From a virus (Duplodnaviria > Caudoviricetes), in IMG/VR virus record IMGVR_UViG_3300005326_000121, positions 1 through 25,193 of that record: a DNA stretch of 25,193 nt. One strand, 5' to 3'. How positions within the stretch are numbered: position 1 is the stretch's first letter; every line of letters begins with the position of its first letter. The notes under the pieces were generated by a model, which did no database searches, was not told where the DNA came from, and saw only the letters and a list, made by a program, of their open reading frames with translations. Shown here piece after piece: positions 1,513 to 22,944 of the stretch. Made by a program: the position numbers and the translations under genes.

Positions 1513-1527
1513 GAGGGCTTCTCCTTT

Positions 1528-3416: not shown

Positions 3417-3439
3417 GATGCTTCGTGGAGGTAGCGATT

Positions 3440-3679
3440 ATGGAAACGATCTTCGACCACAACCCGACCGATGAAGAGCTGCTCTGCGCCGTGGGCGGCA
3501 CGAGCCCTCATATCCTCGATGCGGTCAGGGCGCAAAGATCCCAGGACGGCCACTATGCCGATATCGTGGCGCTCATGCGCAAAAGGGGCGATATGAAGCG
3601 AGCCGGCCATTATCTCTCCCTTATCCGCGACGAGGAGTACCGGCGGGATATTCTCCAGCTCATATCAAAGGTCGCCTAG
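3440..3679 (+). CDS. Small helical protein (79 aa), convergent with MuF gene; possible immunity/accessory protein
   Basis: GGAGG RBS before ATG 3440; METIFDHNPTDEEL...; fills the gap between gp30 and gp32. Confidence 0.7.
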   Translation: METIFDHNPTDEELLCAVGGTSPHILDAVRAQRSQDGHYADIVALMRKRGDMKRAGHYLSLIRDEEYRRDILQLISKVA

Positions 3680-5107
3680 CAGCCGCCCGAAATCCTCGGA
3701 CGTTTCGTTGAGCCGCATAAGGACGCTCATGATCCGAGGCCGGTCCTCCGGCCTCGCCGCCCGTCGCGCCAGAAGGCGCGCCAGGGGCTCCGCGTAGCTA
3801 TCCCGCTTTGCCGTCAGGTAAAGCTCCTCGATCTCGCTCAAAAGCTCATCCCCAAGCCCGAGCCGCTCCAGCAGGAGCCCGAAATTTTTTACATACCGCC
3901 CGTAGGCGTATCCCGCCGCCTTGATGGCCTCCTGGTTGGAAGCCCCGGCCCCAAGCAGTGAAAGTATCCTCTGGTAGGTGCGCCGAGAGAGGTGCTGGGT
4001 GAGCGTCTCCTGCAAAATGTCCCTCGGGTCCAGGGAATCGAGCGCCTCGCCCGGCGTCTGCCGGCTGTGCAGTAGCTCGTGCTGGAGCGTCTCGACCGCG
4101 TACTCCCGGTTGAAGCTCAAGGGAGCGCCTTCCCGGATCGCCCGGAGCGCCCCCAGAAGATCTTTTGCCGGGTTGAACCCGCCGCTTTCGGGAAACGCGC
4201 GGTCGGTTACATAAAAATCCCCGGCTCCGTTCGTGGCCATCATGAAATCGCCGCGCCGGGTAAAATAGACGCTCTCTATCCCGGACGGCCCCGCCAGGGG
4301 CGCAAGCCTTTCCTTTATGAACGCTCCAGCCTCCGGATACGTCTCGATCTCTGGAACGGCGCCGGCCGATGCGAAAAGCTCCCCGCGCTTCTTCAGGAAA
4401 ATATCCCGCAGCCTTTGCGGATAGAGCGACAGATCCGGCTCGTAGTGCTCCCTGGCCGCGTTGGCGTTAAAGCCCCGGTCCGGCATGAGGGGCCGGGCCA
4501 AAAGCCTGTTGCCCTTTTCGTCCACGGGCTCGAAGAGCCTTCCCGTCGGGTCTTCCGTCTCGACGGTCAGGCCCAGCGCCTTAACCTGCCGATCTGAAAG
4601 GGATTTTACGCCGCACCGGCACCGGTGACCGTTCGGCGGATACCACGTATCCCAGAAGGGATGATCCGCCGGGAACACCTTGCCGTCGAGCGCCCTGTGG
4701 GCCGGGCGGGTCCGCGAGTCGTTTACCGCGTCGTACTGCCAGTAGGGCCGGAGGGCCTTCACCGCCTGCATCTGCTTCCATCTTCCCACGTGGTAGGCCG
4801 TCTGGATGTTGGTCCTGAAGATCGTCTCGAGCCTCCGGGCGCCCTTGCCCGTCCAGCCCTGCTTGAGGATGATCCCAGGGATCTCCTTTTTCCACTGCTC
4901 GAAGCTGAGGCCCTCGGATAAGGCCTTTCCCAGGGATTCCTGGATTTTTACTATCGCATCCATCGAGGCGACGCCCGAAACCGTAAAGGCGTTGCCGCGC
5001 GCGGCCTCCGCCAGGCCGTAAAACTCGCGCGCCGACATGGGAACCTTCGATTTCCAGTACTCGAGCGCCTCCTGCATGGGAAGGGCGGTTGGGGCGATAT
5101 CAGGCAT
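3665..5107 (-). CDS. Mu gp30/MuF head morphogenesis protein with C-terminal HExxH (zinc metallopeptidase-like) extension
   Basis: RLETIFRTNIQTAYHVGRW, YDAVNDSRTRPAH, DHPFWDTWYPPNGHRCRC; C-terminal ETLQHELLH...LQETLTQ. Confidence 0.88.
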   Translation of the reverse strand: MPDIAPTALPMQEALEYWKSKVPMSAREFYGLAEAARGNAFTVSGVASMDAIVKIQESLGKALSEGLSFEQWKKEIPGIILKQGWTGKGARRLETIFRTNIQTAYHVGRWKQMQAVKALRPYWQYDAVNDSRTRPAHRALDGKVFPADHPFWDTWYPPNGHRCRCGVKSLSDRQVKALGLTVETEDPTGRLFEPVDEKGNRLLARPLMPDRGFNANAAREHYEPDLSLYPQRLRDIFLKKRGELFASAGAVPEIETYPEAGAFIKERLAPLAGPSGIESVYFTRRGDFMMATNGAGDFYVTDRAFPESGGFNPAKDLLGALRAIREGAPLSFNREYAVETLQHELLHSRQTPGEALDSLDPRDILQETLTQHLSRRTYQRILSLLGAGASNQEAIKAAGYAYGRYVKNFGLLLERLGLGDELLSEIEELYLTAKRDSYAEPLARLLARRAARPEDRPRIMSVLMRLNETSEDFGRLLGDL

Positions 5108-6674
5108 GGGGAAACCCCGGTGAATCGGTGAATCGGTGAATCGGTGAATCGGGAAGCGCCTCCCTTCTTGCCGTGTGGCGCCCGTACATCTCGGCCGCGA
5201 CCGTCGCCCGCTGGATCACGTCGAGCATCGCGCGCTCGTCCAAAATTTGCCCGAAGGCGTCGGCCAGGCGGTCCGCTAGATCGTCCGGCGATGCGGATGC
5301 CTCGATTGCCGCCACGATCATCCGCATGGAGGCATCCATGGCGGAGACGCCCTCCGGCAGGACGTCCGCGACCAGGCGCTCCAGGGCCTCCTGATCGGAA
5401 TCGAAGCGCCCTTCCGAAAACTCGGCAGCCGGCAGGGCATCGCTTCGCGCCTTCGCGTCTTCGCGTGAATCGCCCTGCCCGATGGTCCGCTCCCCCTCCT
5501 TTGCGAGCGGGAGCCCGTAAGTCGTCTCAAAGTAGGTTTCCGGCACGCGCCGCTTAAAATCCAGATCGCCCAGAAGGATCTTGTCCCGCCCGGCCAGGGC
5601 CAAAAGATCCCGCTCCGGCTCGGTTCTCCTCCACACGCTCGGATATCCCCCGCGCGGCTGAGGGCCGAAGTTCAGGTCCACGATCCAGCGAACCAAGGTG
5701 CGGTTCAAGACCTCGCACTGATCGTCCGCGTCGGCCGCGACGATGGTTTGAAGCACCCGCTCGTGCACGTTTCCAAGGCTTTGAGATCCCCGCTCCCCCT
5801 GATCGGAGGTCAAGGTCTGCCCCAGAATGATCTTGGCTATGCAGCCGTCGAAGTAGCTGCAGGCCTTTTCGTAGGCGCCGTCTCCCGCGCGCTTCGCCTC
5901 GAGAAGCTCGATCGCCGCGGCGCTCGATATGGCGATCCCCGTCTTTCTCCTGACGTTTGAAACTATCTCGAGCAGGAGATCCTTGTCCTCCGGCGGCGCC
6001 CCCGGCGGGTATTTTCCGACCGGAACGGGCTCCCCGAAGTCCTCGAGGAAGCTCATCCAGAACTTGAGGCCGCATTTTTTGAACCATACCGGCCAGTAGA
6101 GCTGATGGCCGAGCCCCCGGCCGTAGGGGTTGCTGTCGTGCCCTCCGTAGCTCCAGAGAACGAATTTTTTATCGGGAACGATTTCGCCGTCCCACAGGTT
6201 GGACGGGGTAAGAAGCCTCAAATTCCCCTTCGGGTCGAATACGAACCGCCCCGGCCTCCTTCCCCGAAACTCGCGTATCCAGATATCCCCCCCGGATGCC
6301 TCCCACATGACCTCAACCGGCTTGTATCCGGTAATTACCGCCTGGCAGAGATCCCGGCAGAGCCTGTCGAAGTTGGCGGAGGCGAGCACGGCCTTGACGA
6401 AATCGGCGATTTTCGCGTCCGCCCGCTTCTCCGTGGCCGGGTCGCACTGCCATTCGCAGGCCTGAAGCGCAAGCGTTCTCGTCTGGTGCATGGCGAACAC
6501 CTGCGCATCGCGGCTAATCTCCTCGTAGATCCTGACTCCCCGCCCCGCGCTCTCCTCCCTCAGGACCGCGTCCGGGTTTTCGAGGCGAGAAAGCCAGCCG
6601 GAGAAGATATCGATATCCTTTTCCAGCGCGGCTACTTCGCCTGCAGGGGGCCGTTTTGCGGAATCGTCTCTCAT
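5100..6674 (-). CDS. Mu gp29-like portal protein (DUF935)
   Basis: NPYGRGLGHQLYWPVWFK, FGEPVPVGKYPPGA, IAKIILGQTLTS, GSQSLGNVHERV. Confidence 0.93.
   Translation of the reverse strand: MRDDSAKRPPAGEVAALEKDIDIFSGWLSRLENPDAVLREESAGRGVRIYEEISRDAQVFAMHQTRTLALQACEWQCDPATEKRADAKIADFVKAVLASANFDRLCRDLCQAVITGYKPVEVMWEASGGDIWIREFRGRRPGRFVFDPKGNLRLLTPSNLWDGEIVPDKKFVLWSYGGHDSNPYGRGLGHQLYWPVWFKKCGLKFWMSFLEDFGEPVPVGKYPPGAPPEDKDLLLEIVSNVRRKTGIAISSAAAIELLEAKRAGDGAYEKACSYFDGCIAKIILGQTLTSDQGERGSQSLGNVHERVLQTIVAADADDQCEVLNRTLVRWIVDLNFGPQPRGGYPSVWRRTEPERDLLALAGRDKILLGDLDFKRRVPETYFETTYGLPLAKEGERTIGQGDSREDAKARSDALPAAEFSEGRFDSDQEALERLVADVLPEGVSAMDASMRMIVAAIEASASPDDLADRLADAFGQILDERAMLDVIQRATVAAEMYGRHTARREALPDSPIHRFTDSPGFPHA
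5118..5152. repeat. Tandem octamer repeat (CGGTGAAT)x4 plus CGG in the 3' end of the portal gene
   Basis: Direct reading: cggtgaat cggtgaat cggtgaat cggtgaat cgg. Confidence 0.95.
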
Positions 6675-6680
6675 GGAGGC

Positions 6681-8099
6681 CTACCTTAAAAAACGCTCTA
6701 AGGCCGTCGAGGCCCTATCCACGCCGCTCGAGCGGTACTCGATTCTCGCCGGCGGCGAGGCGGCCGCGTGAAGCGCAAGGGCAAGCGCCCAGAAGCGATC
6801 TGAATGTCCGTTCGGTCCCCGGTCGGCGTCGAACCGGATGTTTCCGGCGGCCGTCGTGGTCTTTTTGATCGCCCGAAGATCGGACCTGATGGCGTTGCTC
6901 TGCGGGATCTTGATGTTTTGATCCTCGAAGGCGGCGCGAAGCGGATAGGCCAGGGCCTCCTTTACCGGCCCCGTGAAGCGCACGGGCTCGACCTTGTAGC
7001 CGTAGCGCTCGACGGCCCGCTCGGCGAGCTGCATGCCGAGCCCCGTAGCATCGATACAGCAGCGCCTGAGGGAGCGAAGCTCAAGAAGGCCGTAGAGCAC
7101 CGCCTCCTGCTCGCTAAAGGATTTGCCCTGCATCTCGACAACCTTGCGGGTAAAAAAGCGCCCGTTTATGCGCTCGATGGCCCAATCGACCGTAAGATCC
7201 CTGTTCCGTCCGACATCGACTCCGAGATAGAGCTCACCGGGCGCGCGGCCGTCAGGCCCGCGTCCATCGGCTCCCATCTCCCACTCATCCCCCGGCGCGT
7301 ACTCGCATTTGGCGATCTGGTCGTAGGTCAGAAACGCCCCCTCGTCGTCCGCCGGAACGCACATATACTCCTGGGCGAACTGCTCGGAATCGGCGCACCC
7401 TGACCGGATGAAGTCGAAATAATCCGCCTCGTCCATCTCCTGAATGGGGGAATCCGCCGGGATCTTCGACTGGAGCTTGTATAAAAAGCCCTGATCGAGC
7501 GCGTCCTGAAGCGTCACCCTGTGGAGGGAAAACCCCTTGGGGTTTCCCTTGTGCGTTATTTCAGTCACCAGCTCGTTAAAAAAATTCGCAGATCCCCGGT
7601 GGGTGGAGACGATCTCGAGCTGCCCGCCCCAGGTAATGCCGGGGTAGGCAATCGAGTAGAGCTTCCTCGGATCGGGGTGCAGGGCGAATTCATCGAGGAC
7701 CCGGCCTCCCCTTTTTCCCGCCTGGGCGTCCGGGTTTGAGCTCATCGAGTGGATGCGCCGCTCGTTTGCAAACTGGAGGACAAAGGCGGATATTCTCTTC
7801 TCCGGATCGATTACCTGGAGCCCGAGGGATTCGGCGGCGGCGTTCAGGAGCTTTGCGAACATCACGCAGTCCTCCAGGAAAAGCCGCGCCTGAATTTCGT
7901 CGCGCGACGATACCCACTGATCGAATCTGGCCTCTCTGGGCGCCGTTCTGTCCACGCAGGCGCAGGCCGAGGCCCAGGAGAGGCCGATCTGCCTCGATTT
8001 TTCCATGAGCTTCAGGCGCGATGCATCGTCTATCCACCGGTTCTGATACGGCAGGAAGGTGCGCCGCGGCTCGGGAGGAATGATTTTTGCTCGGCCCAT
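6681..8099 (-). CDS. Terminase large subunit (Mu gp28-like)
   Basis: MEKSRQIGLSW (Walker A-like), VLDEFA (Walker B), nuclease motifs LGVDVGR and HSDRFWALALA. Confidence 0.93.
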   Translation of the reverse strand: MGRAKIIPPEPRRTFLPYQNRWIDDASRLKLMEKSRQIGLSWASACACVDRTAPREARFDQWVSSRDEIQARLFLEDCVMFAKLLNAAAESLGLQVIDPEKRISAFVLQFANERRIHSMSSNPDAQAGKRGGRVLDEFALHPDPRKLYSIAYPGITWGGQLEIVSTHRGSANFFNELVTEITHKGNPKGFSLHRVTLQDALDQGFLYKLQSKIPADSPIQEMDEADYFDFIRSGCADSEQFAQEYMCVPADDEGAFLTYDQIAKCEYAPGDEWEMGADGRGPDGRAPGELYLGVDVGRNRDLTVDWAIERINGRFFTRKVVEMQGKSFSEQEAVLYGLLELRSLRRCCIDATGLGMQLAERAVERYGYKVEPVRFTGPVKEALAYPLRAAFEDQNIKIPQSNAIRSDLRAIKKTTTAAGNIRFDADRGPNGHSDRFWALALALHAAASPPARIEYRSSGVDRASTALERFLR

Positions 8100-8100
8100 G

Positions 8101-8727
8101 TTAGAGTCCCAGCGTTGTGCGAAGCTCTTTAAGGGTTTCGGCGTCGGGCGCCCGGCCTGTAATCTCCTGACCCCTCGTCCCGTCAGCCTCCATCTTGCTC
8201 AAAAGCTCGCGCATGGCGGCAAACTCCTTCAAGGTCTGAAGGGTCAGGGCCTGGGCCGGATTGACCAGCATTTGCCGAAGCTTCAGCTCCATCGCCGCGC
8301 GCAAGGCTTCGATGGGAGAATCCGCGCGGATGGGGCCGCCCGTCTCTTCATCCGGCGCCGAAGCCGGAACGGAGGCCGGAGGCGGCGTTTCCTGGAGCTT
8401 GAGCCAGGCCTGGGCGGTCTTTTCAAGCGCCGCTACGGCAAAGGCGTCTTTGGCCTCGAGGCTGTCGAGGTATTTCCCGAGACCCGCCGCTCTCGCCACG
8501 ATGAGGTCGGCTCTGATGGCGGATCGCGCCTGCCGGATGCGCTCTTTTTTCTCCTGCCAGGAGTAGCGGTCGCTCCACCGCTTGAGGGTGGATGCGGCGA
8601 TGCCGAGAAGAGAGGAGACGCCCTCGAAAGTGTGCCCGTCCACGCAGTAAAGCTCTTCGGCGCGGTCCACCACCTCCATGGGGTATTCCTTCGATGCCGG
8701 CTTCCTCGGCGCCCCATCTCCGTCCAT
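8101..8727 (-). CDS. Putative terminase small subunit / HTH protein (DUF1804-like)
   Basis: N-terminal HTH TFEGVSSLLGIAASTLKRWSDRYSW; directly upstream of the large terminase. Confidence 0.65.
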   Translation of the reverse strand: MDGDGAPRKPASKEYPMEVVDRAEELYCVDGHTFEGVSSLLGIAASTLKRWSDRYSWQEKKERIRQARSAIRADLIVARAAGLGKYLDSLEAKDAFAVAALEKTAQAWLKLQETPPPASVPASAPDEETGGPIRADSPIEALRAAMELKLRQMLVNPAQALTLQTLKEFAAMRELLSKMEADGTRGQEITGRAPDAETLKELRTTLGL

Positions 8728-8729
8728 GT

Positions 8730-8981
8730 TTACTCCCGGCCCAGGACGCGCTTTATGATGTCGATTTCCCTGTCGAGAGGATCGAGCTGCTCTCTTTTCA
8801 TGCCGTCGAGCCGAAGGGCCAGCACGGCAAGGGCCTCGGTATCCAGGGACTCCACGGGCTCATAGGCGGGGAGCAGGCATTTGATGCGGTCCCGCAAGGA
8901 CTCCATTTCGATTGCGAGCCTGTTCCGGCGCTCCCTGCGATCGGACAAAGCCCCCAGGTTCATCAACCGCTCCTCCTGCAT
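8730..8981 (-). CDS. Hypothetical coiled-coil phage protein
   Basis: 83 aa, translationally coupled to neighbours. Confidence 0.7.
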   Translation of the reverse strand: MQEERLMNLGALSDRRERRNRLAIEMESLRDRIKCLLPAYEPVESLDTEALAVLALRLDGMKREQLDPLDREIDIIKRVLGRE

Positions 8982-9358
8982 CAGATCACCTCCCCGGCGG
9001 ACCGTCTGACCATTGGACAGAATTGATTCGTCTTCACTTCGTGGCTCACCGTTTCGAGCCCTTTAACGACCAGCACCGATAGATCCTGCTGGCCTTCGGC
9101 CAACCGGTGGCAGGTCTTGACCAGCTCGACATTGTTTTCATACCGCCTGGCCCACTCCGCGTCCCGGACGTCGCTCTTTGCCTGGATGGTCATGATGTCG
9201 TCGCGGTATTGCCGAAGCACCGCCTGGATATCCTCGCGGTACTGGCGCATCATCCGGTCCTGCTGCTCCCGGCCGAAATACCAGACGATAAAGACCATGC
9301 CGGGAAGTCCGAAAGCCTGGAGGAGCTCGACCAATGTTTTGAGGCCGAACGATTCCAT
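8981..9358 (-). CDS. Membrane-anchored coiled-coil protein (holin-like, BhlA/UviB-type architecture)
   Basis: N-terminal hydrophobic segment LLQAFGLPGMVFIVWYF followed by charged helix; start of late operon. Confidence 0.6.
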   Translation of the reverse strand: MESFGLKTLVELLQAFGLPGMVFIVWYFGREQQDRMMRQYREDIQAVLRQYRDDIMTIQAKSDVRDAEWARRYENNVELVKTCHRLAEGQQDLSVLVVKGLETVSHEVKTNQFCPMVRRSAGEVI

Positions 9359-9579
9359 CAGCCCCTCCCCGTGCCGGACGGCATGAGCCTCAGGGGCCGC
9401 TCGGCCTTGATCCGCCCGTAGAGCGCCCAGATGAGCCCGACGACGACCGAGGCCTCATCGAGCATTTGCCCGAGGGCGTCGGAATCCACGGCAATGCCCA
9501 GGCGCGGCGCGAAATGGGCCAGGGCCATGAGAATCAGCCCCTGAACGGTCCTGCTCGAAAGAATGTGCTTTGGCTTCAT
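9358..9579 (-). CDS. Putative holin (two TM segments)
   Basis: K.ILSSRTVQGLIL...VVGLIWALYGRIKA pattern; GAGGG RBS. Confidence 0.65.
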   Translation of the reverse strand: MKPKHILSSRTVQGLILMALAHFAPRLGIAVDSDALGQMLDEASVVVGLIWALYGRIKAERPLRLMPSGTGRG

Positions 9580-9814
9580 ATGCTGCCCTCTGCGTGGTTA
9601 TTCGGTTTGTGCCGGGATGAACGGGGAGAGGGGAGGATGGGCGCCGCGTCCCGGGGGTGCTCGAACACGGCGCCCGGAGTATGAGAAGCGATGAGTCCCG
9701 GCGCAACGAGGGCAGAATATCGCCTCCCGCCGGGCAGCCAAGCGAAACATGAGGGTACGTGATGCAAGTGGTTGTTTTTAAAAGCGATTGTTTTTGCGCA
9801 GAACAATCATTATC

Positions 9815-9841
9815 AAAAAAGCCGCTCCAGATGGGGCGGCT
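9815..9841 (-). terminator. Rho-independent terminator between early/middle and late regions
   Basis: Minus strand AGCCGCCCCA-TC-TGGAGCGGCT followed by T-run. Confidence 0.7.
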
Positions 9842-9922
9842 CTACAGCGCTTCTTTATGGGGGTGGCGGAACGATTGAGATGTGGTAAATATAACCGTCA
9901 TCCAATACGGAAGGAGATGCTC

Positions 9923-10339
9923 ATGGGTGTTGCGGCGGTCGAGGGCGCTTTGGCTTTCGGACAATTTGCCTCGGAGCTTCAAAGGGTGCTGCGCGGCCTG
10001 GCCGGAGGATGGCCAGCCCTTCTGCCGGCCGCGCTCCATCTGGCGCGCATGGAGCGGGGAAGCCGCCTGACCCTTGCAAAGGTGAGGAGCGCCATGGCGC
10101 TCTGCGCGGAGCTCTGCCACGAAGGAGCCTGCCTTGGCAGGCTTTTGGAGCACGCCGCCTTGATCCGGGATCTCCACGCGGAGATATACGGCCGCATGGC
10201 GGCGTTTCCCCTTGGATTTCTGTTCAGAAAACGGGTCGAGCTCTCGCTCCATGAATGGGACAATCTGGTGGAGGACTGCGCCGTGGCCTCCGATCCCGAA
10301 ATCCGTGAAATGCTCATCGAGCTGGCCGGCCGGATGTGA
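9923..10339 (+). CDS. Putative antitoxin (138 aa, helical, family not recognised)
   Basis: AAGGAG RBS; TGATG overlap with downstream RelE-like toxin gene. Confidence 0.65.
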   Translation: MGVAAVEGALAFGQFASELQRVLRGLAGGWPALLPAALHLARMERGSRLTLAKVRSAMALCAELCHEGACLGRLLEHAALIRDLHAEIYGRMAAFPLGFLFRKRVELSLHEWDNLVEDCAVASDPEIREMLIELAGRM

Positions 10340-10692
10340 TGGCCTGCACCATCGAGCGCTCATCGGCATACGAGATCCATCTTCGCGATCTGCTCAAGAC
10401 CTATCCCCGGAGCCGCTCCACCATCGAATCGCTTATCTCAGGGCTTGCCGATCAGCCCGAGCAGGGAGATGTGTATCCGGGATTCGGCCCGGCGCAGGTC
10501 CGCAAGGTGCGTATCGCCCTGCCCGAATATCGCCTGGGACAGAGCTCCGGAGTGCGCCTCCTCTATCTTTTCAAACCGCAATCCGGCAAGATTCTGCTTC
10601 TGGCGATATACCGCAAGGGCGCAATCAAGGCGGAGCACGAAGTGATCCGCCTTATCAAAAAAGCGCTCAAGGAAGAGCTCGGGAAGAATTGA
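10339..10692 (+). CDS. RelE/HigB-family type II toxin
   Basis: LADQPEQGDVYPG..VRKVRI...GQSSGVRLLY...ILLLAIYRKG resembles the HigB-2/RelE pattern. Confidence 0.8.
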   Translation: MACTIERSSAYEIHLRDLLKTYPRSRSTIESLISGLADQPEQGDVYPGFGPAQVRKVRIALPEYRLGQSSGVRLLYLFKPQSGKILLLAIYRKGAIKAEHEVIRLIKKALKEELGKN

Positions 10693-10811
10693 GGGAGGGC
10701 CGCCATTGCCCGCCGAGAGGTGGCGGCCGTATCGTTTCGAGCAACGGGCGGAATCTCTTCCGCTTCTCCGGGTACTGGGCTGTTCCCCTGTGCTCCTCGG
10801 CGCATACTCGG

Positions 10812-10902
10812 ACTCAACGCCCCAAAATCAGCGGCGCGGCCTGCGGTCTCCGGGGGAGAACCACAGGCTGTCTCCGCGTCCGCTGCATTTTGCTGGTTAG
10901 AC
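10812..10902 (-). other. Integron attC site (91 bp)
   Basis: Minus strand: GTCTAAC CAGC AAAAT[G]CAGCGG[A]CGCGG...CCGCG CCGCTG ATTTT GGGGC GTTGAGT; R''/L''/L'/R' layout with two extrahelical bases, 5 nt after a stop codon. Confidence 0.85.
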
Positions 10903-10907
10903 GGATA

Positions 10908-11213
10908 CTATAGAATCAGGCTTTCGCCCTCTTTGAACACCTTGAGACTCTTTTTGTACCGGAAGACCGTCACCACCGTGCACGTGGCCAGGTCCACCAC
11001 GAAGATGGACGTCGGCCCCTTGCCGGGAGGCACCGCCGCCACAAGGTTTTCCCTGGCCTCGGTGATGCGCCCCGAAAGCGCCCGCTTGATGAACCGATCC
11101 TCGTGGAAGGTCTCGGTCTTGAGGCCGTAAATCTCCTTCAGGCGGATCACCGCGTAGCGCGAGAGCTTTACCGCCTCGCAGTAGGTGGCGACCGTCTGTC
11201 CTTTGAGGTTCAT
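10908..11213 (-). CDS. Hypothetical protein, weak DUF4258/RelE-like pattern
   Basis: VKLSRYAVIRLKE...IFVVDLATCTVVTVF; ATGA-coupled to upstream gene. Confidence 0.6.
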   Translation of the reverse strand: MNLKGQTVATYCEAVKLSRYAVIRLKEIYGLKTETFHEDRFIKRALSGRITEARENLVAAVPPGKGPTSIFVVDLATCTVVTVFRYKKSLKVFKEGESLIL

Positions 11214-11488
11214 GGCGCATCTCCCGTGAGGGCTTCATAGGCTTCGTCCACGGCTTCCCGGACGATGCCCAGAATCAAGGCGAGGCCGTCCGCCTCCCGG
11301 TTGGTAAGCGGAACCTCCATGGACATTTCGGGGCCTACGGTCGGAGCCCACTGAAGCACCGAGTGCCGAAGAAAGGCCAGCATGCCGTCCGCCGCCATGA
11401 GCGCGTCTCCGGGGTGACTTGAGCCGGTGATCTGCTCCATAAGAGAGCCCGGCTTGAGCTTCGGTACGGGGCAGGGGTTAGTTGACAT
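11210..11488 (-). CDS. Hypothetical protein downstream of antirepressor
   Basis: 92 aa; AAGGA RBS; overlaps both neighbours. Confidence 0.65.
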   Translation of the reverse strand: MSTNPCPVPKLKPGSLMEQITGSSHPGDALMAADGMLAFLRHSVLQWAPTVGPEMSMEVPLTNREADGLALILGIVREAVDEAYEALTGDAP

Positions 11489-12170
11489 GATTGTCCTTCC
11501 TTGAAAAGAGAGCAGGAAGGTTCTCCGTCATGCGGCGTATTCGGGCATTGGCCGGACCGTGATCGGGGAAAAATAGTTTGAAAGGCTTCATTTCATGCTC
11601 AAGCCGCTTTGCCTGCTCCACGGTAAGACCCACTGCTCCGGCCGCCTCCGCCTGATAAAGCCCTAAGTAACGGAAATTGCAATACCGGGTGAAATCCTCG
11701 GAAGAGAGGCCGAATCGACCCAGTAAGGCATTGATGCCAAACCCAAGGCTGAGGCCCGAGGGTGGAGATAGGGGAAGCTGGATGGGCTTGCCCTCAGGCA
11801 GGGCTGCCGTGATAGCCTGCTTTAATTCCCTCACATGCCCAGGTAGCCTAGCAAGCCACACGCGCAACTCCTTGGCCGCAGGGGATTGACCGAACATGGC
11901 GAGGAGGTAGGCACCCGTTTCATCGAAAACCCGATGGGGCCTGGCGTGGCCATCTCCTTGGGCCCTCATGGTGAGGGTGCGGGTGTGAGGCTCAAGCTCT
12001 TCTTTATTTCGTGCATAAAGATTCTGCACAGCCTTGGTAGGGTCGGCAAACCCAAGGGCCATGCCAAGATCCACTCCCGGAACGTAGTCGCGCCCCTCAA
12101 TATGGACAACGCGAACCGGGACGCCGTTGAAATGATGGATGCTAATGGTGAAGTCCTTGTTCTTTTCCAT
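11478..12170 (-). CDS. Bro-N domain phage antirepressor
   Basis: FNGVPVRVVHIEGRDYVPGVDLGMALGF...VFDETGAYLLAMFGQSPAAKELRVWL. Confidence 0.85.
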   Translation of the reverse strand: MEKNKDFTISIHHFNGVPVRVVHIEGRDYVPGVDLGMALGFADPTKAVQNLYARNKEELEPHTRTLTMRAQGDGHARPHRVFDETGAYLLAMFGQSPAAKELRVWLARLPGHVRELKQAITAALPEGKPIQLPLSPPSGLSLGFGINALLGRFGLSSEDFTRYCNFRYLGLYQAEAAGAVGLTVEQAKRLEHEMKPFKLFFPDHGPANARIRRMTENLPALFSRKDNHVN

Positions 12171-12223
12171 GTCTTGTCTCCATTTTATTCAAGCTGTCCG
12201 GAGCCCCCCGCAGAAAACAAAAA

Positions 12224-12389
12224 TCCCGAAGACTTGCTTGCACCAAAATGGAAGTGCCCCCGTCCTTGCGGATGCGGGGAGTCTCCGGGATCATAGTTCC
12301 GGCCTGAAATAAAAAAGGCCACTGACGGGGGCAACCGCCATTTTGTTGCAAGCCCCATCAGCCTACGGGATGCCCGGCAGCGATGTCAA
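12224..12389 (-). promoter_or_regulatory. Promoter plus structured leader of the antirepressor operon (c4/ash-like antisense pairing)
   Basis: TTGACA-18 nt-TAGGCT (12389-12360); long inverted repeat 12236-12264/12324-12353; second pair 12224-12234/12280-12290; T-run after GGCC. Confidence 0.6.
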
Positions 12390-12407
12390 ACGGTTTTTAC
12401 GGAATGA

Positions 12408-12731
12408 TCAGTGAATCCGGTGCAGCACATCCCGGCAGGGATTACGCCTGAATTTGTCCGGGATGCGCTCGGAGGCGGCTTCGAGCTCATCCATTGTCAT
12501 GCCGAGCCCCTTGCAGAGGGTTTCCGCGCTGTAGCAGGGCTCGCCGTTCTCGTCGAAGTAATCGGGCTTGACGTCCGGGAAAAACATCCTGAAGCCTGCT
12601 GCCATCTTCTCCCTGATCTCGGGAGGCCCGTTCTCCATGCAGTATTGCAGGGCATCCAGCCCGGCCTCGCTCTCAAGCCCCTCGCGCTCGATAACCGCCA
12701 TAGCTTCCTGCAAGGACGAAAACTCTGTCAT
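12408..12731 (-). CDS. Hypothetical protein with putative DNA-binding motif
   Basis: GGAGG RBS; FDENGEPCYSAETLCKGLGMTMDEL resembles wHTH/antirepressor N-domain. Confidence 0.7.
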   Translation of the reverse strand: MTEFSSLQEAMAVIEREGLESEAGLDALQYCMENGPPEIREKMAAGFRMFFPDVKPDYFDENGEPCYSAETLCKGLGMTMDELEAASERIPDKFRRNPCRDVLHRIH

Positions 12732-12798
12732 GACTACCCCTCCCTATGAACATGCAATTTGCGCTTTTTGACAAACCGGCACGGACTGCCGGTGATCC

Positions 12799-12907
12799 GT
12801 CTAACGCAAGATTAAGCAGCGGCGCCGAAATACCATGGACTGCCGCTGACACCACCGACTTTCACTCGCCCACGGATTGCGCCGTCTGCTTCAATCTCTG
12901 GTTAGCG
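12799..12907 (-). other. Integron attC site (109 bp)
   Basis: Minus strand: CGCTAAC CAGAG ATT[G]AAGCAG[A]CGGCGC...GCGCCG CTG CTTAAT CTTGC GTTAGAC; the ORF stop codon lies within R''. Confidence 0.88.
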
Positions 12908-13081
12908 TCTGTGGATATAGTACGGCATCAAAAACGGACTTAGCCCGGCCAAGCCAAAGAGTGCACCCAAGACCTCTCTCTCCACCTGGCGTTTACTCGG
13001 CTTCCTCCTCTTGGTCCTGCCGGCGACGATAGCCTGAGCCTTTCGCTCTTCCGCTGAGCCTCTTCTTTTGGCTTCTCCCAT
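12902..13081 (-). CDS. 59-aa basic cassette-encoded protein (MGEAKRRG..., hydrophobic C-terminus); absent from ORF track
   Basis: MGEAKRRGSAEERKAQAIVAGRTKRRKPSKRQVEREVLGALFGLAGLSPFLMPYYIHRR*; ATG 15 nt after GTTAGCG, TAA inside attC R''. Confidence 0.7.
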   Translation of the reverse strand: MGEAKRRGSAEERKAQAIVAGRTKRRKPSKRQVEREVLGALFGLAGLSPFLMPYYIHRR

Positions 13082-13096
13082 CTCTCACTTCCCTTC

Positions 13097-13245
13097 CGCT
13101 AACAAGGATTAGACGGCTCAAGGCCGTTTACCCAATAATTGCACCATGCGCATCTCCTACACCTCGTTCATCGACATCTCGTTCATGGCTGTTATGTTCC
13201 ACGTGAAACATCAGCCATTTTGTCAACTATCACTATGGGTTAGCT
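13097..13245 (-). other. Degenerate/composite attC-like site heading the cassette array
   Basis: Minus strand AGCTAAC (13245-13239)...hairpin TAAACGGC/GCCGTCTA...ATCCTT GTTAGCG (13103-13097); L boxes poorly conserved. Confidence 0.45.
13195..13210. promoter_or_regulatory. parS-consensus palindrome TGTTCCACGTGAAACA
   Basis: Exact match to the bacterial chromosomal parS consensus TGTTNCACGTGAAACA, flanked by ATGGCTG/CAGCCAT arms. Confidence 0.75.
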
Positions 13246-13262
13246 CCAAACGAGTATACTTG

Positions 13263-13940
13263 TCATCTCTTCGTGTGCTTCCCGCACGCCTTTGCCGGAT
13301 CGACGGACCGCACGGCCTTTGGATCGAGCCGGCACCATCTGGGCACTTCAAAATGCTTGCAGGTGTGGCAGTTGAGCTTTTTATCGGCATCGAACGCCTT
13401 GCCCAGCGCTTCGGCAAGGGCGCGGATATCGCCTTTCGTGGCCCGAGCCTCCCCAGTCTCCTCGGGCGCCGATGCCGCCTCCAGCGCACCGAAAACGAAG
13501 CTTCTACCCTCCCTTTGCTTTCTTGACTCGTCCGTCCGCTCGGCCTGGGCGGCAAGTGGCCTTGCCTTGCTCCAGGCCGTGTGGCGTATGTAGTTGTGGT
13601 CCTTTAGGTGCTCTAGTCTCGGCTCCCGCTCGATTGCCGCCCGCATCGCCTCGGCCCATATTTCGGGAGGGCAGGGGCGCTCCTCGGATTTCTCCCACCG
13701 CACGCGGCCGGGAGCCACCAGGTCGCGCAGCGAGGATAGGATTGTCAGTGTCCGCTTGCTCGTCAGGCTGCGCTTTTCGGAGCGAAAAAGCCCCAGGTAC
13801 TCCCATAGATCCCGGTGAAGGACCTGGGGCAGCTCGTTTCGCGCCAGCATGATTACCTGCTTCCAGCCTATGGCCTCGAGGAAAGCCTCCAGCTCCCCCA
13901 TGTAGCCTCAGCACGGGCACTGGCACATGAAGGGGCTCAC
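13263..13940 (-). CDS. Mu-like early protein (YLGLFR family) with in-frame TGA at codon 11; open from ATG 13901
   Basis: GTG 13940 overlaps the gam stop (GTGA); reads MSPFMCQCPC*GYMGELEAF...EYLGLFRSEKRSLT; C-terminal Cys cluster. Confidence 0.7.
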
Positions 13941-14455
13941 ACCGCGGCCTCGCTAAGCGCTTCCTCGAAGGGCTTGACCTCGAAGTCCTCGCTCTGGCTT
14001 ATGGAGAGCCCCTTTATCGCAACAATCGCCTCGGGCTCGTTCAATATGGCCTCCTTGTTGAGCTCCTCCTTTTCCCTGATAAAGCGCGTGAGCCCGAGCC
14101 GTCTCAACTGATCCAGGACAGCCTCGACGCCTCGCGTCACGACCTTGGGAGGCGTCGTGCGCCAGGAGACGACTCCGGTTTCAAGGGATGCGCTTTTCAC
14201 TTTCCCCCCTTGCGTAAGAGCGTCCCGGTTGGCCTCGCACCAGATCCTGACCCCGTGGGTCAGCGCCTCGATCGCCGCGCCGTGGGGCCGCGCCGCCTCT
14301 TCATATCTGGCCTTGATCACGGACATTTCATCGTTCATGGCCGTCTCCAGGCGCGTTACCTCCCTCTGCCGCCTGCCGATTTCGGCGATTGCCGATACCG
14401 CCTGCTCGCGGCTCTGGGGAACACCGTAAGGCGATGCCTTCTCCTTTGCCCTCAT
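13937..14455 (-). CDS. gam: Mu Gam-like host-nuclease inhibitor
   Basis: WCEANRDALTQGGKVKSASLETGVVSWRTTPPKV...FIREKEELNKEAIL...EDFEVKPFE. Confidence 0.93.
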   Translation of the reverse strand: MRAKEKASPYGVPQSREQAVSAIAEIGRRQREVTRLETAMNDEMSVIKARYEEAARPHGAAIEALTHGVRIWCEANRDALTQGGKVKSASLETGVVSWRTTPPKVVTRGVEAVLDQLRRLGLTRFIREKEELNKEAILNEPEAIVAIKGLSISQSEDFEVKPFEEALSEAAV

Positions 14456-14808
14456 GCCTCGCCTCCCGCCTCATCGGCCGCATTCGCCGCATTCCCGCAG
14501 GCGCACGCGGCGCACTCCCGAAGCTCCGTTAAAACTGGAACGGCTGCCTCCGCCCGCTTGAGCTCCCAGACGATCTGGTTGCCGAGAGGCCGCATGTCGT
14601 CTTCCGCCCGGAGCCTGAGCCCCTGAAGGATGTGCGGCGCCAGGCTAAAATCGACCGTAACCTGGAGCCCGGCCGCATCGCCGTTTGCTCCCAGCGCCTT
14701 CTCCCTTGCCATCTCATCGGCGTAGCAGGGCGAGCAGAGCCCGCGAGCCTTGATGAGCCTTTCCCGATTGCACTTCCTGCAAACCCCCATTTTGGAGCTT
14801 CCACCCAT
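14452..14808 (-). CDS. Zn-finger protein with possible ribbon-helix-helix region
   Basis: CRKC...ARGLCSPCY; VTVDFS...LRLRAEDDMRPLGNQIVWEL; AAGGAG RBS. Confidence 0.7.
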   Translation of the reverse strand: MGGSSKMGVCRKCNRERLIKARGLCSPCYADEMAREKALGANGDAAGLQVTVDFSLAPHILQGLRLRAEDDMRPLGNQIVWELKRAEAAVPVLTELRECAACACGNAANAADEAGGEA

Positions 14809-14910
14809 GTATGCTTCTCCTTCATCCGGTGTTGCCCGTTCGTCCTTATCCGGGGTAGAAAGACCGGTGAAGCCGGGTCTTTTCCACCCCGCGCCTGGCG
14901 CGATACCGGC

Positions 14911-15552
14911 TTATGCCCTGGCAGGTCCGGCCGGCGTCGCGCCCTCCTCACCTTCATTTTTCCGGGATATCGCGCAATTTTTTTCCGTCGCGCACAGACG
15001 GCAGACCCAGACCTTTTTTCCCTTGAGCCTGCGGTACTCCCCGTACACGGAAAAATCCCGGCATACGCCGCACTGCGTTGAAGCCCGCCGCATGTCCGCG
15101 GCATTGTTGAAGTCCTCGACCGTCGAATCGAGGATCGAGAGCAGCTCCTTCTGGAATCCGCTCGAAAAATGCCCCATCCGCTTCAGCATGAGCGATCTCA
15201 AAAAACTTCTTTCGGATTTGTCGAGCACCCCGGACCTCCTTCCTGTCTGCCTGTGTTCCTTCAGGGGCTTCGCCCCGCCGCGGCTTTTGCGCTTCCTCGA
15301 TGCCGCCGGACCGGGCGCGGCAGCATCCACGCCCGGCTCCTTCCGCGCGCATCGGGCCTCGACTGCGTCCCTGAGCGCCGAAACATCGCTATCGTCGAGC
15401 TCGCCCCGCGCAGCAGCCTCTCCCGCCGGGCAATCCCAGCAGCCCGGATAGCGGATCTGCCTTATCGCCGGGTTATAGCCCGCCACTGTCGCCCCCTGGT
15501 TTGCAAGGCACCTTTCGACCGTTATGGTTGCGTGCATCCTCTCGCATCTCAT
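14911..15552 (-). CDS. Cys-rich hypothetical protein (several CxxC pairs)
   Basis: CWDC, CGVC, CRLC motifs; GAGGT RBS. Confidence 0.7.
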   Translation of the reverse strand: MRCERMHATITVERCLANQGATVAGYNPAIRQIRYPGCWDCPAGEAAARGELDDSDVSALRDAVEARCARKEPGVDAAAPGPAASRKRKSRGGAKPLKEHRQTGRRSGVLDKSERSFLRSLMLKRMGHFSSGFQKELLSILDSTVEDFNNAADMRRASTQCGVCRDFSVYGEYRRLKGKKVWVCRLCATEKNCAISRKNEGEEGATPAGPARA

Positions 15553-15556
15553 CGCC

Positions 15557-15781
15557 TTACCTCAAAGCCGCCCAATCGGGATGCGCGTCGTCCCGGTGAA
15601 GCCCGCGCCCCTTCATCGTCTTTACGCGCTCGTCGAACCCTTCGGGAAACTGCAGGTAATCGGCCAGCGACGCCCCCGTAAGGCGCCATATCCTCCGTTT
15701 CACGTACCTGCGCCTGAGGCGCTCCTGGCGCGAGAAGAACGCAAGGATCCGCTTTACCGGTCTTTTAAGCCAACCCGGCAT
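15557..15781 (-). CDS. Hypothetical basic protein
   Basis: 74 aa, tiles between neighbours; AAGGGG RBS. Confidence 0.55.
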   Translation of the reverse strand: MPGWLKRPVKRILAFFSRQERLRRRYVKRRIWRLTGASLADYLQFPEGFDERVKTMKGRGLHRDDAHPDWAALR

Positions 15782-16172
15782 GCATCCCCCTTCTCGGATG
15801 CACCTGAATAAAGGGCCTCCGTCCGTTTAAGTCGCACGGCATGCAGTACCACCACTCGACCGGCTCGAAATCCGCGCCGAACCATCCCCACCGCATCATG
15901 GGCTCCCCGCACAGGCGGCACCTCGGAGCCCCCGCATGCTCGCGCATGATCCCCTCGACGCAGCCGAGCGGGTGCGGAAGCTCGGCCCAGGCGATGATGC
16001 CGGGCCATTCCTCGGCCTGGCAGGCGTCGGCGTCGAGATCCCAAAACGCCCCGCCGTGGTGGAAGGCAAGCCCCACGTTGCCGCCATCGGTTACGAGCAC
16101 CGCGTCACGGTGCTCGGGCGGATTGCAGGCGGGATGAAACTCAAGCGTCCAAAAACGTCCCCACGCCCTCAA
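15765..16172 (-). CDS. Hypothetical protein, DUF551-like region plus Zn ribbon
   Basis: TTG start overlapping gemA stop with GGAGG RBS; PP..DAVLVTDG...IIAWAELPHP; CRLC...CMPC. Confidence 0.6.
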   Translation of the reverse strand: MRAWGRFWTLEFHPACNPPEHRDAVLVTDGGNVGLAFHHGGAFWDLDADACQAEEWPGIIAWAELPHPLGCVEGIMREHAGAPRCRLCGEPMMRWGWFGADFEPVEWWYCMPCDLNGRRPFIQVHPRRGMHAGLA

Positions 16173-16735
16173 TTTTTCCCTCCCTTCCCTGGATTCCCGC
16201 CAGGAGCGCGCGGGAATGACTGGACGCCTGCCGCGGCATCGCCGGCGCCCTTCCGGTCCAGGCGCTTTCCGTGGATGGATAGCGCCGCCGCGATTTTGTG
16301 CAGTTGCTCGAAGTCGCACCAGACAACCTTCTCCACCCCGAACATCCGCCGGGCCATCCCGTGGGCATACGCCCAGCCCTTTCCCTGGGCGGCCAGGAGA
16401 GCGCTTATCTTGGACATGAGCGGCTTTTTTTCAGGGGAGGGCTCAAGCCCCCGCTCCCACTGCAGGAATGCCGGTTTCTCGCTTACCCTGCTCGCCCTCG
16501 AGGGCGGCCAGCTTTTGCCCGCCGACTTGAATCCCAACGCCTCGAATCTTTTCATGCACTCCTCGAACTGTTCGGTTGTCAGATCCTTCGAGCTTTCCGC
16601 TCCGGAAACATCCCTGAGCATGTCCCGGTAGGCATCCTCCTCCATCCCCACCTTCGCTTTCGCCACGTGGATCAGGGCGATCTGCCTGCCGTTTACCGCT
16701 CCCACCCGCGTCTTTTTCGTCTGAGCATGAATCAT
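16169..16735 (-). CDS. gemA: GemA/gp16 family protein (DUF1018), copy 2
   Basis: QIALIHVAKAKVGMEEDAYRDML...SSKDLT...LMSKISALL...WAYAHGMARRMFGVEKVVW; AAGGAGG RBS. Confidence 0.9.
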   Translation of the reverse strand: MIHAQTKKTRVGAVNGRQIALIHVAKAKVGMEEDAYRDMLRDVSGAESSKDLTTEQFEECMKRFEALGFKSAGKSWPPSRASRVSEKPAFLQWERGLEPSPEKKPLMSKISALLAAQGKGWAYAHGMARRMFGVEKVVWCDFEQLHKIAAALSIHGKRLDRKGAGDAAAGVQSFPRAPGGNPGKGGKN

Positions 16736-16748
16736 TGCCCTTCCTCCT

Positions 16749-17031
16749 TTACCTTCCTTCCCCGAGCAGGCGCTGCCTTCGCTCATCGATCCTCTCCGCC
16801 CGCTCCCAGAGCCGTACCGAGCCCTCGTAGGCAGCGGAGGCCAGCGCGAATTCGGCGAGATTTCCGACGCAGCGCTTCTTCGCGGCAATCGCGGCATCGG
16901 CCATGGACTTCGCCCTTCTCCTCAAAGTCCTCACCCTCGCCCAAAGCAGATCGGATTAGCGGCCGCACATTCAAAACAAGATCCAGCAGCTCGTCCTTCG
17001 ATAAATCCTTAAGAGCCATCGCCGTTTCCAT
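16749..17031 (-). pseudogene. Hypothetical gene, probably frameshifted near 16950-16956
   Basis: METAMALKDLSKDELLDLVL... (AGGAGG RBS) continues more plausibly as ...DLLWARVRTLRRRAK...GEGR* in another frame, whose stop abuts the gemA RBS. Confidence 0.45.
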
Positions 17032-17147
17032 CGAACACATCCTCCTCGCCCAGGTTTGGTTATCGCCATGCCCCCATCCCACCTCCCAGGGCTCGATTCG
17101 CGATCAAGCCCTGGAAGATAGGCCCGGCCCGTGGGCCGGGACACCGC

Positions 17148-17357
17148 TTACGCCCAATCGAACCGGTTGCATCCGATCCGCATATCTTCGAGATATCGAA
17201 GCCTGATCTCCTTCCGCTCGCTCTCGTCCTCGATCATCTCAAGGACCGCCTCGTCGCTCGGGCGGCTCCTCCCGATCCGCTCAAGGAGCTCCCCGGCCAG
17301 ATTCCCGTAGTAGCTGGACTCGGAGCTGAGCTCCTTCAGGTATGCTCTCAAACTCAT
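17148..17357 (-). CDS. Hypothetical protein (69 aa)
   Basis: MSLRAYLKELSSE...; GGAGG RBS; ATGA coupling. Confidence 0.65.
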   Translation of the reverse strand: MSLRAYLKELSSESSYYGNLAGELLERIGRSRPSDEAVLEMIEDESERKEIRLRYLEDMRIGCNRFDWA

Positions 17358-17473
17358 CCCTCGCCTCCCCAGTCCTCTACCGCCCCGGTTTCCCACATCG
17401 CGTTGACCAGGCCGCCACCGACGACGCCACCGGCGACGGCCCCGAGCAAAAAGATCAGGATGTATTCGATCAT
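17354..17473 (-). CDS. 39-aa single-TM small protein
   Basis: MIEYILIFLLGAVAGGVVGGGLVNAMWETGAVEDWGGEG; strong AAAGGAGG RBS. Confidence 0.65.
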   Translation of the reverse strand: MIEYILIFLLGAVAGGVVGGGLVNAMWETGAVEDWGGEG

Positions 17474-17557
17474 GAGCCCCCCTCCTTTCTATTTCTCTGG
17501 TTTTGAGTGCGAAATTTCCCCGCCTCGAATTCTTCCAGTTTTTCGTGCAAAAACCCT

Positions 17558-18034
17558 TCAGCCCGCTCGCCTGCTCCGATGAGCTCCGCCCCGCTTTAAA
17601 ATCCCGAGCACACGCCGAAGCTTTGTAAGATCCCGGCACCACCCGATCTCCTGAACGTTGCACTCCCGATTGGCCAGATCTCGAAGCCTTTGCTTTACGT
17701 CGCCGCCCAGGGCCTCCGCTGCCGCCCGGATGCGCGTGTGAAGCTCGCGCACCTGGCGGTCCATTGTCGCCGGGTCCTCCGAATCCTTCGGCTTTCCAGG
17801 CTTCCAGCCAAGGGCCATCATGACCCGCACCAGATCTTCGAGCTCCATGTTTGAAAGGCAGCTTGCCGACGTGACCCCGAAGTGCTTTACGAGCATCATT
17901 CGGTAGTCGATGTCCCTGATTTCGAGCTCCTTTTTGGCGATGTGCACCTTGGCCAGAAGCGCCCGGTACTCGAGCACCACGGCGTTGGGCCCGCTTTCGA
18001 TTTTGCTTTGGCTTCCTCCATCGAGTACCTTCAT
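17558..18034 (-). CDS. gemA: GemA/gp16 family protein (DUF1018), copy 1
   Basis: LLAKVHIAKKELEIRDIDYRMML...GVTSASCLSNMELEDLVRVMMALGW. Confidence 0.85.
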   Translation of the reverse strand: MKVLDGGSQSKIESGPNAVVLEYRALLAKVHIAKKELEIRDIDYRMMLVKHFGVTSASCLSNMELEDLVRVMMALGWKPGKPKDSEDPATMDRQVRELHTRIRAAAEALGGDVKQRLRDLANRECNVQEIGWCRDLTKLRRVLGILKRGGAHRSRRAG

Positions 18035-18501
18035 GAGCCACCTTCCTTTCCGGACCTCTGCGCCGCGACGTATTTTTGATAGAAGCGATCCAGATGACGA
18101 ACCCGGTAGATCCATATGGGCTGATTGTTCCTATTTCTTTTTTTGCCCACCCGTTCGATGTCATCTTCGTCCAGAAGCTGCCGGATAACCTTCGAGGTGA
18201 AATTCATGCCGGCATCGGCCAGCATCGCGATATCAGCGGCGGTAAAGGCGCGCTTTACGTGCATCGCCCGGTACATTCGGGGCTTGATGCTCCGGCGCGC
18301 GCCCCACGCCGGTTGAAATCCCAGGTAGCGGTACCGGCCGGATTCCATCCGTTTCACCTCACCCCGGAGAGCCATGTCTTTGAGAACATCCCGGACCACT
18401 CCTCCGTGCGGCAGCTCAAGATCCCGTGTCACCTCAGCCGGCGTAAACTCACTCAAAAGACCGCTTATATGCTCACGCACCCTGCTTGCCGTCGTCTTCA
18501 C
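18031..18501 (-). CDS. Tandem winged-helix DNA-binding protein
   Basis: Two wHTH-like units: FTPAEVTRDL...RGEVKRMESGRYRY and FTAADIAMLAD...DIERVG...IYRV. Confidence 0.7.
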   Translation of the reverse strand: MKTTASRVREHISGLLSEFTPAEVTRDLELPHGGVVRDVLKDMALRGEVKRMESGRYRYLGFQPAWGARRSIKPRMYRAMHVKRAFTAADIAMLADAGMNFTSKVIRQLLDEDDIERVGKKRNRNNQPIWIYRVRHLDRFYQKYVAAQRSGKEGGS

Positions 18502-19180
18502 GGCATACCTCCGCGGTAAGCTCGTCCGTAATCGCCTCGATCCCCGAGGCCTTCATCTTCTTTTCCATCTGCACGGCGTCGTTTACGACGATCCGGAAAT
18601 CCCCCGCGCTGTGCTTGGCAAGCTGCGCCGCCTGCTTGGGGGTTACGGCCTGCCCCATGGCGTTCCGGTAGAAGACCACCACATCGATTGCGCAGAGGGG
18701 CTCGAATCTGAGCTGATGGGCGACTCTGCTCTTGATGCGCCTCTCCTGCTCGATGAGCCTTGAAAGCATCTCTTCTCCGATCATTACAACCGGCACCTTG
18801 AGCGCGTCGTGCAGGTCCCGAAGCGTGTTCACATGCCTAAGGGTCATGCGGTCCACCTCATCGACCATGATGATCCGCCGCTGCAGGGCCATTTCGCTTT
18901 GAATGAGCTCGTATGCCCCGGCTCCGCTCCGGGGACGGGTGCCGCCCAGGATGAAGGCGATCTCGCGCATGAGCACCCGAGGAGTCATCCAGTCCTGAAA
19001 GCGGATGAGCACCGCTCTGGGATCGACCACGATCAGCCGCTCGGCGGCCGTCGTCTTGCCCCGTCCCGTGCTTCCCACAACGGTCGCCATCTCGAGGCCG
19101 AGCGATGTGGAAAGCAGGTCCTCACACAGGGATTGCAATTTCTGGTAGTTCTGGGTAGGTATGAATACGTCTTCACGCAT
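18473..19180 (-). CDS. MuB-like AAA ATPase (transposition protein B)
   Basis: Walker A GSTGRGKT, Walker B IMVDEVD, LRDLHD, RIKSRV; GGAGG RBS before ATG 19180. Confidence 0.9.
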   Translation of the reverse strand: MREDVFIPTQNYQKLQSLCEDLLSTSLGLEMATVVGSTGRGKTTAAERLIVVDPRAVLIRFQDWMTPRVLMREIAFILGGTRPRSGAGAYELIQSEMALQRRIIMVDEVDRMTLRHVNTLRDLHDALKVPVVMIGEEMLSRLIEQERRIKSRVAHQLRFEPLCAIDVVVFYRNAMGQAVTPKQAAQLAKHSAGDFRIVVNDAVQMEKKMKASGIEAITDELTAEVCREDDGKQGA

Positions 19181-19250
19181 GAGCGCCTCCATTCGGTTCT
19201 GGTGGTTTAAGGCCCCGTTTGGCACTTGCAGGCGTAGCGGGGCCGGGTGC

Positions 19251-21566: not shown

Positions 21567-21646
21567 AAGCACACCGCACAGAGAAAGATTATTGTTGAGG
21601 AACAAACACATCTGGGGTCCGAATGGTTCTGGGACCTGGCTTTTGC

Positions 21647-22118: not shown

Positions 22119-22123
22119 CCTCC

Positions 22124-22907: not shown

Positions 22908-22944
22908 CTAAGTTGCTCCTCGTTAGTGTCTAAATGTTGGGATA

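Follow-up and report, generated by a model that had tools for sequence, protein, structure and literature searches.

Two attC-bounded cassettes behind a likely attI-type site in the early region of a Mu-like prophage

Introduction

Clusters of attC sites lacking an integron integrase (CALINs) are already known in phages. In the accessible text of their paper, Qi, Rajabal, Ghaly, Tetu and Gillings (2023) count 17 such clusters of two or more attCs without intI in 10,705 genomes, report that 5 of 6 tested phage attCs recombined with attI1 under IntI1, and name DNA methyltransferases among the cargo (PMC9892861). The same text places an attI ahead of the CALIN of the Shewanella prophage M16-3, describes upstream direct-repeat integrase sites in attI1, and suggests illegitimate or homologous capture, with no comparison of relatives (PMC9892861); M16-3, which is not Mu-like, has a complete integron in addition, according to the available part of a second paper (PMC8541194). 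Here, we analyze an array of this kind in a 25,193-nucleotide stretch of viral DNA (IMG/VR record IMGVR_UViG_3300005326_000121, positions 1 to 25,193; hereafter the window), which represents part of a Mu-like prophage. The window holds real attCs with complementary cassette ends, at an insertion point that is conserved with different contents in a second Mu-like prophage, and the sequenced parts of both contain no integrase. We consider it likely that the two attC-bounded cassettes lie behind an attI-type site at a fixed slot of the early region, and that a host IntI acting in trans adds cassettes there.

In described integrons, IntI, which is usually under SOS control, recombines the folded bottom strand of an attC with a double-stranded attI, and replication favors attC folding, as stated in the available portion of one source (PMC8946536); CALINs are mobilisable in trans, as stated in that of another (PMC11389934). 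In the main text of the phage study, the words 'in trans' are absent and 'Mu-like' occurs only in a reference title (PMC9892861). In literature made up mostly of texts outside subscription journals, and seen in part, we found no description of phage docking sites that are conserved while their cassettes vary.

Results

Two attC sites close two cassettes

The array and the gene that marks its position comprise the following features, numbered as in the window:

10812..10902, minus strand: attC closing cassette B (R1 score 42.5 bits, E 1.2e-8)
12799..12907, minus strand: attC closing cassette A (R1 score 52.2 bits, E 4e-11)
12805..13102, minus strand: cassette A, 298 bp, with one 59-amino-acid open reading frame (ORF) at 12902-13081 whose stop codon lies within the R'' of its own attC
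10818..12804, minus strand: cassette B, 1,987 bp, with an ORF at 12408-12731, a leader, and then three genes, namely a Bro-N antirepressor at 11478-12170, 11210-11488 and 10908-11213
13097..13136, minus strand: attI-like docking site, with an inferred G|TT crossover at 13103/13102 and an imperfect inverted L-like box just upstream
13263..13901, minus strand: conserved phage gene directly upstream of the docking site, which marks the slot (phrog_2161, E 2e-17)

To avoid circularity, R1 was built from host attCs only: it is a covariance model of 30 host-family attCs from intI-linked arrays, picked with the same rule-based finder that was applied to the window, with the window itself excluded. 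R1 matched both sites significantly, the rule-based finder returned exactly two sites in the window vs. 0 in 30 shuffles, and both sites fold on either strand (z -2.7 to -4.6); Rfam gave 0 matches in the window at gathering score. Both sites have the anatomy of an attC, with R''/R' cores, paired L''/L' arms, two extrahelical bases each, and a variable terminal stem; in the site at 10812 the first extrahelical base stands at position 10, not 9, a register that host arrays show as well. The cassette ends are complementary, with cassette A starting GTTAGCG and having the complement CGCTAAC in its attC, and cassette B bounded by GTTAGACGGAT and ATCCGTCTAAC, an 11-bp complement. As in a CALIN, there are two attCs, both on the minus strand and co-oriented with the early genes. 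The original prediction, made from the letters alone, had called these two sites, their orientation, their complementary cassette ends and the two extrahelical bases of each; all were borne out, and the covariance-model check that it proposed came out positive with R1.

Both sites also have relatives. The attC at 12799 shares 89% identity over 103 bp with a member of an attC cluster from the Syntrophobacteraceae (L156), and the attC at 10812 belongs to the same family as a host site (L161) and as the last attC of L258, the second Mu-like prophage (76% over 87 bp). Arms of both attCs occur, differently flanked, in other contigs of runs X1 and X2, and an exact pattern of the site labelled attC2 had 0 viral matches. 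Both attC sites are real, and their bottom-strand recombination by IntI is predicted from sequence.

A likely attI-type docking site precedes the array

A third site, at 13097-13245, had been put forward as a degenerate attC, which we reject: the segment lacks an attC hairpin fold (z -1.5, -1.8), and R1 finds no match there even at E 5. It carries a GTTRRRY-type core with its cassette complement but without the hairpin, and this core matches an attI beside intI in Syntrophobacteraceae locus L230 at 15/16 positions, with 13/16 in L236 and 12/16 in L222 and L210; among 28,347 GWT-anchored background sites, 0 reach 14/16. The third site is most likely an attI-type docking site, attI-like but not a proven attI, at which IntI recombination is predicted. 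The original picture of a CALIN in a Mu-like early region thus stands as to the integrase-less array and its prophage; since its third site appears attI-like and not a decayed attC, the locus would be a platform with a docking site and not a CALIN alone.

Two further elements lie upstream of the docking site:

13159..13186, minus strand: two 13-base direct repeats, one of which holds a GWTRRRY-type heptamer at -69 from the crossover
13195..13210, no strand assigned: 16-bp palindrome, an exact match with 0.01 expected by chance

The heptamer is a possible accessory integrase site. We take the palindrome to be of the chromosomal parS type; it does not occur in L258 or the other phage loci scanned. 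With the docking site as a DNA query, 301 genomes gave weak matches only, mostly to the palindrome; in Desulfobacterota genomes, palindromes like it make up most of these weak matches. The 28 bases around it loosely resemble an attI-like site in L349 (see below), so this region may overlie an older docking site. Searching with the attI core as a pattern gave 8 viral and 12 genome matches, which we rejected as chance because they were at control level and none lay beside an integrase or attC. The attI-like site of phage L342 had no plasmid matches above chance level.

The slot is conserved in a related prophage and filled differently

We reached L258 through a protein homologue (65%) of the gene upstream of the array; a search for relatives of this gene found none in viral contigs and, in metagenome contigs, nothing beyond the contig of the window itself. 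By its Pfam matches to a Mu transposase and a MuB ATPase, L258 is a Mu-like prophage; a similarity search with the window transposase missed its transposase, which Pfam detected. The two phages share orthologues that are 55-68% identical on both sides of the slot, including a 64% identical orthologue of the phrog_2161 gene directly upstream of the L258 site. A homologous docking site lies 100 bp past this gene (25/36 ungapped identity), ranking first among the 818 GTT-anchored sites of that record. From the equivalent G|TT, L258 carries different cassettes, the first of which starts GTTGGAT and ends ATCCAAC, in an array of three good attCs and one weak one whose cargo is unrelated to that of the window, with none in common. 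Similarity between the two resumes only at the block ahead of the lysis genes. The breakpoint comparison in related Mu-like phages that the original prediction had called for thus gave the outcome that it anticipated.

The 36 bases before the crossover are conserved about as well as the flanking genes (69% vs. 65-75%), and the non-coding DNA farther upstream can be aligned only by opening long gaps. Together with the 15/16 match to a host attI, and with the families of start sites that recur in other phage arrays, bearing an L-like box and direct repeats, this argues against the possibility that host IntI used an ordinary secondary site, or attG, in a tolerated hot spot with no dedicated docking site. 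Such use has a described basis, as IntI inserts at very many GWT sites and may form small CALINs there, according to the accessible text of a preprint (bioRxiv 10.1101/2022.09.11.507474), and it would suit the finding that an L-box matrix from 12 other sites leaves the window site outside the top 5 of 423; the same matrix ranks the L258 site first of 419. We regard an ordinary attG as decidedly unlikely.

The trait is patchy among prophages. Two fragments likewise have attCs just before the late genes: L368, with a Mu portal, and L027, whose terminase is 72% identical to that of the window and whose contig begins at a GTT core. We rejected L027 as proven Mu-like, as it has no Mu portal match. 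Scans with Gam and terminase found 37 mostly distant viral loci, only L027 among them with attC matches. In the early region of one Mu-like prophage, L154 in genome G038, a block of four genes (10455-13817) was seen, which we take to resemble a type IV CRISPR-like module, with presumably Cas7-, Cas5- and CysH-like genes as judged by eye.

The integrase probably comes from the host

No tyrosine recombinase was detected among the 39 window ORFs scanned, in agreement with the original prediction, and tblastn with IntI gave a best E of 1.8; no integron integrase is present in the 25-kb window, which extends at least 10 kb on either side of the array. The window stops short of the prophage tail genes and right end, so this negative covers only part of the phage, and the corresponding negative for L258, no PF00589 match in its 42.5-kb record, rests on a record rated 84% complete. 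In neither the window nor the L258 record does an intI stand beside an attI, as in a complete integron.

The likely host can be read from the prophage boundary:

110..24257, minus strand: Mu-like prophage (part), with a Pfam set including a MuB-type ATPase, two GemA and Gam

Pfam assigns to this minus-strand prophage a DDE transposase with a Mu C-terminal domain, a B-type ATPase, terminase, Mu portal, F, gp36 and Gam. Its left end, at 24257, lies within a host acetolactate synthase gene, and this gene and the next have the same neighbor order in 5 Syntrophobacteraceae loci among the 80 best matches. The host is probably a member of the Syntrophobacteraceae, judging by this flanking gene order. 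IntI scores above the TIGR02249 cut-off in 22 of 81 genomes of that family, so that a host intI is known from family genomes, and its use by this phage we infer. Run X1, perhaps the source of the window, contains the phage end attached to two distinct host flanks, along with an uninterrupted copy of the host gene, which fits the expectation for a transposing phage.

The same work could in principle have been done by an Xer-type recombinase, encoded by phage or host, or by homologous recombination across attC arms that resemble each other. Some tyrosine recombinase does occur in 12 of the 50 array-bearing records of the survey below, and the window covers only part of its phage; yet none is present in the L258 record or in 6 of the 10 near-complete records, and IntI above cut-off was found in 0 of the 50. 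The sites themselves speak for IntI rather than another enzyme, as the attCs carry two extrahelical bases and match those found in intI-linked arrays, their arms vary between attCs of the same array, and exchange points fall at G|TT and not within the arms. We consider such another route very improbable.

Phage attC arrays are numerous, with exchange points at G|TT

With a pattern for a single attC subtype, 30 of the 64 parts of IMG/VR yielded at least 122 viral loci, for an estimated total of about 260. R1 was run on the first 79 loci, those with flanks (321 matches), and rerun on the 56 with several matches; the set was not dereplicated. Three or more co-oriented attCs, up to 13, are present in 45 of the 79 loci (the L258 record included). 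Flanking ORFs matched PHROGs in 23 of 32 cases tested, including terminases, a portal, helicases, and tail proteins. A non-attC site of a recurring kind opens many arrays; such sites have an L-like box and direct repeats that are clearer than those in the window. Two or more arrays in opposite directions were seen in L305, L314 and L319, and those in L305 (7243-9723 and 14541-15292) each open with an attI-like site, the two sites being nearly identical.

We compared the four bases that follow GTT with R'' sequences in 222 adjacent attC pairs: they fully complement the next R'' in 74% of pairs and the site's own R'' in 24%, with a mean complementarity of 3.57 of 4 observed vs. 2.07 under shuffled pairing; complementarity to the next R'' rather than to the site's own is the signature of circle insertion. 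Over 8,748 bp, L349 and L354 share 99.9% identity, and they diverge exactly at G|TT; a cassette common to both is preceded by a non-attC site in L349 and by an extra attC in L354 (where the contig ends within the array). Likewise, a 413-bp cassette, 99-100% identical, occurs in L334, L345 and L327 among different neighbors, with both ends at G|TT.

That near-identical phages differ exactly at G|TT is hard to reconcile with a dead relic, in which an ancestor captured a piece of host integron, attI and cassettes together, and the array no longer changes. Such a history would account for the host-like attI core, for the last attC belonging to the same family in the window and L258, for the lack of excision joints in the contigs of two runs, and for a prophage that is perhaps defective, with no endolysin found; in the available text of PMC11389934, moreover, reviews see CALINs as deletion products. 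It does not sit well with a docking site that the window and L258 have in common with no shared cargo, with window attCs that are both perfectly paired and cassette ends that are intact, or with a phage end joined to two host sites. We judge a relic unlikely.

Several observations weigh against a slot supplied by host IntI, beyond the L-box ranking of the window site, the incomplete phage records, and the host intI known from family genomes only. Contigs of X1 and X2 show no joint or deletion at 13103, 12805 or 10818, though contigs drop rare variants, so that absence is not shown. The sampled host arrays contained no match to any phage cassette body. Only 4 of 27 intI-flanking regions have a similar core at the apparent cassette start, and the bare 14-mer core is no commoner than control in 401 genomes. 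Among 14 other prophage loci from Syntrophobacteraceae genomes, 0 had an attC match, several of them ending short of the slot. Lastly, no endolysin was found between the array and the holin (window 9580-9720), unlike in L258, L027, L153 and L154; because of this the prophage is perhaps defective, and it may be lysis-defective or carry its endolysin gene elsewhere. The core of the original prediction is nevertheless supported, namely an integrase-less array in a Mu-like prophage that a host IntI probably serves, while use of the enzyme and present activity, with no excision joint in the contigs of two runs, we infer.

Cassette cargo

The cassette genes of the window lie in the usual cassette orientation. 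The cassette A ORF has a weak match to phrog_35223 (E 4e-4), and a protein search returned only the ORF itself. In cassette B, the Bro-N gene matches PF02498 (E 1.4e-8) and antirepressor PHROGs, and part of the leader (82% over 83 bp) recurs together with Bro in phage L027, outside the cassettes detected there; cassette B probably acquired a phage antirepressor module. The leader before Bro-N (12171-12407) is non-coding, contains a terminator-like stem, and is partly common to L027 (1237-1436) and L165; we presume a likeness to the antisense-controlled leaders of antirepressors. The remaining cassette B ORFs fall in no named family, with PADLOC and NCBIfam empty and Atlas matches to unnamed families only, and the array has no match among 50,697 GenBank phages.

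Across the survey, the median cassette measures 390 bp and cargo is mostly unnamed. Of 219 cassettes, 104 have their longer ORF on the opposite strand, vs. 60 with it on the usual strand (L297-L375). Scans gave a match for 3 of 142 same-strand ORFs and for 6 of 50 opposite-strand ORFs, 3 of the latter being methyltransferases; the few survey matches thus include DNA methyltransferases.

Prophage setting and neighboring genes

The array is located at the end of the early block, directly ahead of the lysis and head genes, and is followed by one further module:

9923..10692, plus strand: two-gene opposite-strand module past the array, possibly a toxin-antitoxin pair (second ORF phrog_5869, E 1e-8; weak Gp49, E 0.013, and ParE, E 0.085)

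We rejected this module as a third cassette, since the downstream complementary R'' is absent. Its second gene is weakly RelE/ParE-like. L258 carries another opposite-strand gene at the same place. Two GemA paralogues (16169-16897 and 17558-18115) occur in the one early region of the window, and no Mor-type activator was detected among the window ORFs scanned. Between head genes F and protease lies a small opposite-strand ORF (3425-3679) with no family match.

Discussion

We propose that a host IntI would recombine the folded bottom strand of an incoming attC with the double-stranded docking site at G|TT, and incoming cassettes would take the first position. The cassette strand ahead of the array shows no consensus promoter and no clear cassette promoter (Pc), so the early transcript would act as promoter, with read-through from the early operon expressing the cassettes. 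Replicative transposition and packaging would then spread each filled version, and a transposable phage would offer cassettes an extra route among chromosome sites and cells.

More broadly, though with less confidence than for the window itself, we lean toward the view that phages, transposable ones included, keep attI-type sites of their own, and that host integrases are their general means of assembling accessory regions out of a pool of small cassettes passing from phage to phage. This would involve hundreds of uncultured phages, far beyond the 17 published CALINs, and the counts suggest that published surveys of cultured phages miss most cases. It would address the long-standing question of how phages gain and swap small accessory genes of the early region, and, if true, integrons would be a tool borrowed by phages and not only a defence store of the host. 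Because both the precise swap points and the probable enzyme are known, a standard assay could test the idea.

Relative to known systems, the phage CALINs of Qi et al. are, like the array in the window, attC clusters without intI; what differs, and what is added to them, is a fixed, variably filled slot in transposable phages, orthologous in two of these and holding different cassettes. The chromosomal integrons of the Syntrophobacteraceae share with the window their attC architecture, near-identical attC sequences, and a similar attI core, whereas the window has neither intI nor a clear Pc, its site follows a phage early gene, and its cargo is phage-like. In the accessible text of Loot et al., attG secondary-site insertion and SALINs likewise involve IntI in trans and cassettes away from an integron, with small CALINs as a possible outcome (bioRxiv 10.1101/2022.09.11.507474); the attG sites described there are many and share only a GWT consensus, whereas the insertion point in the window is conserved between phages and attI-like.

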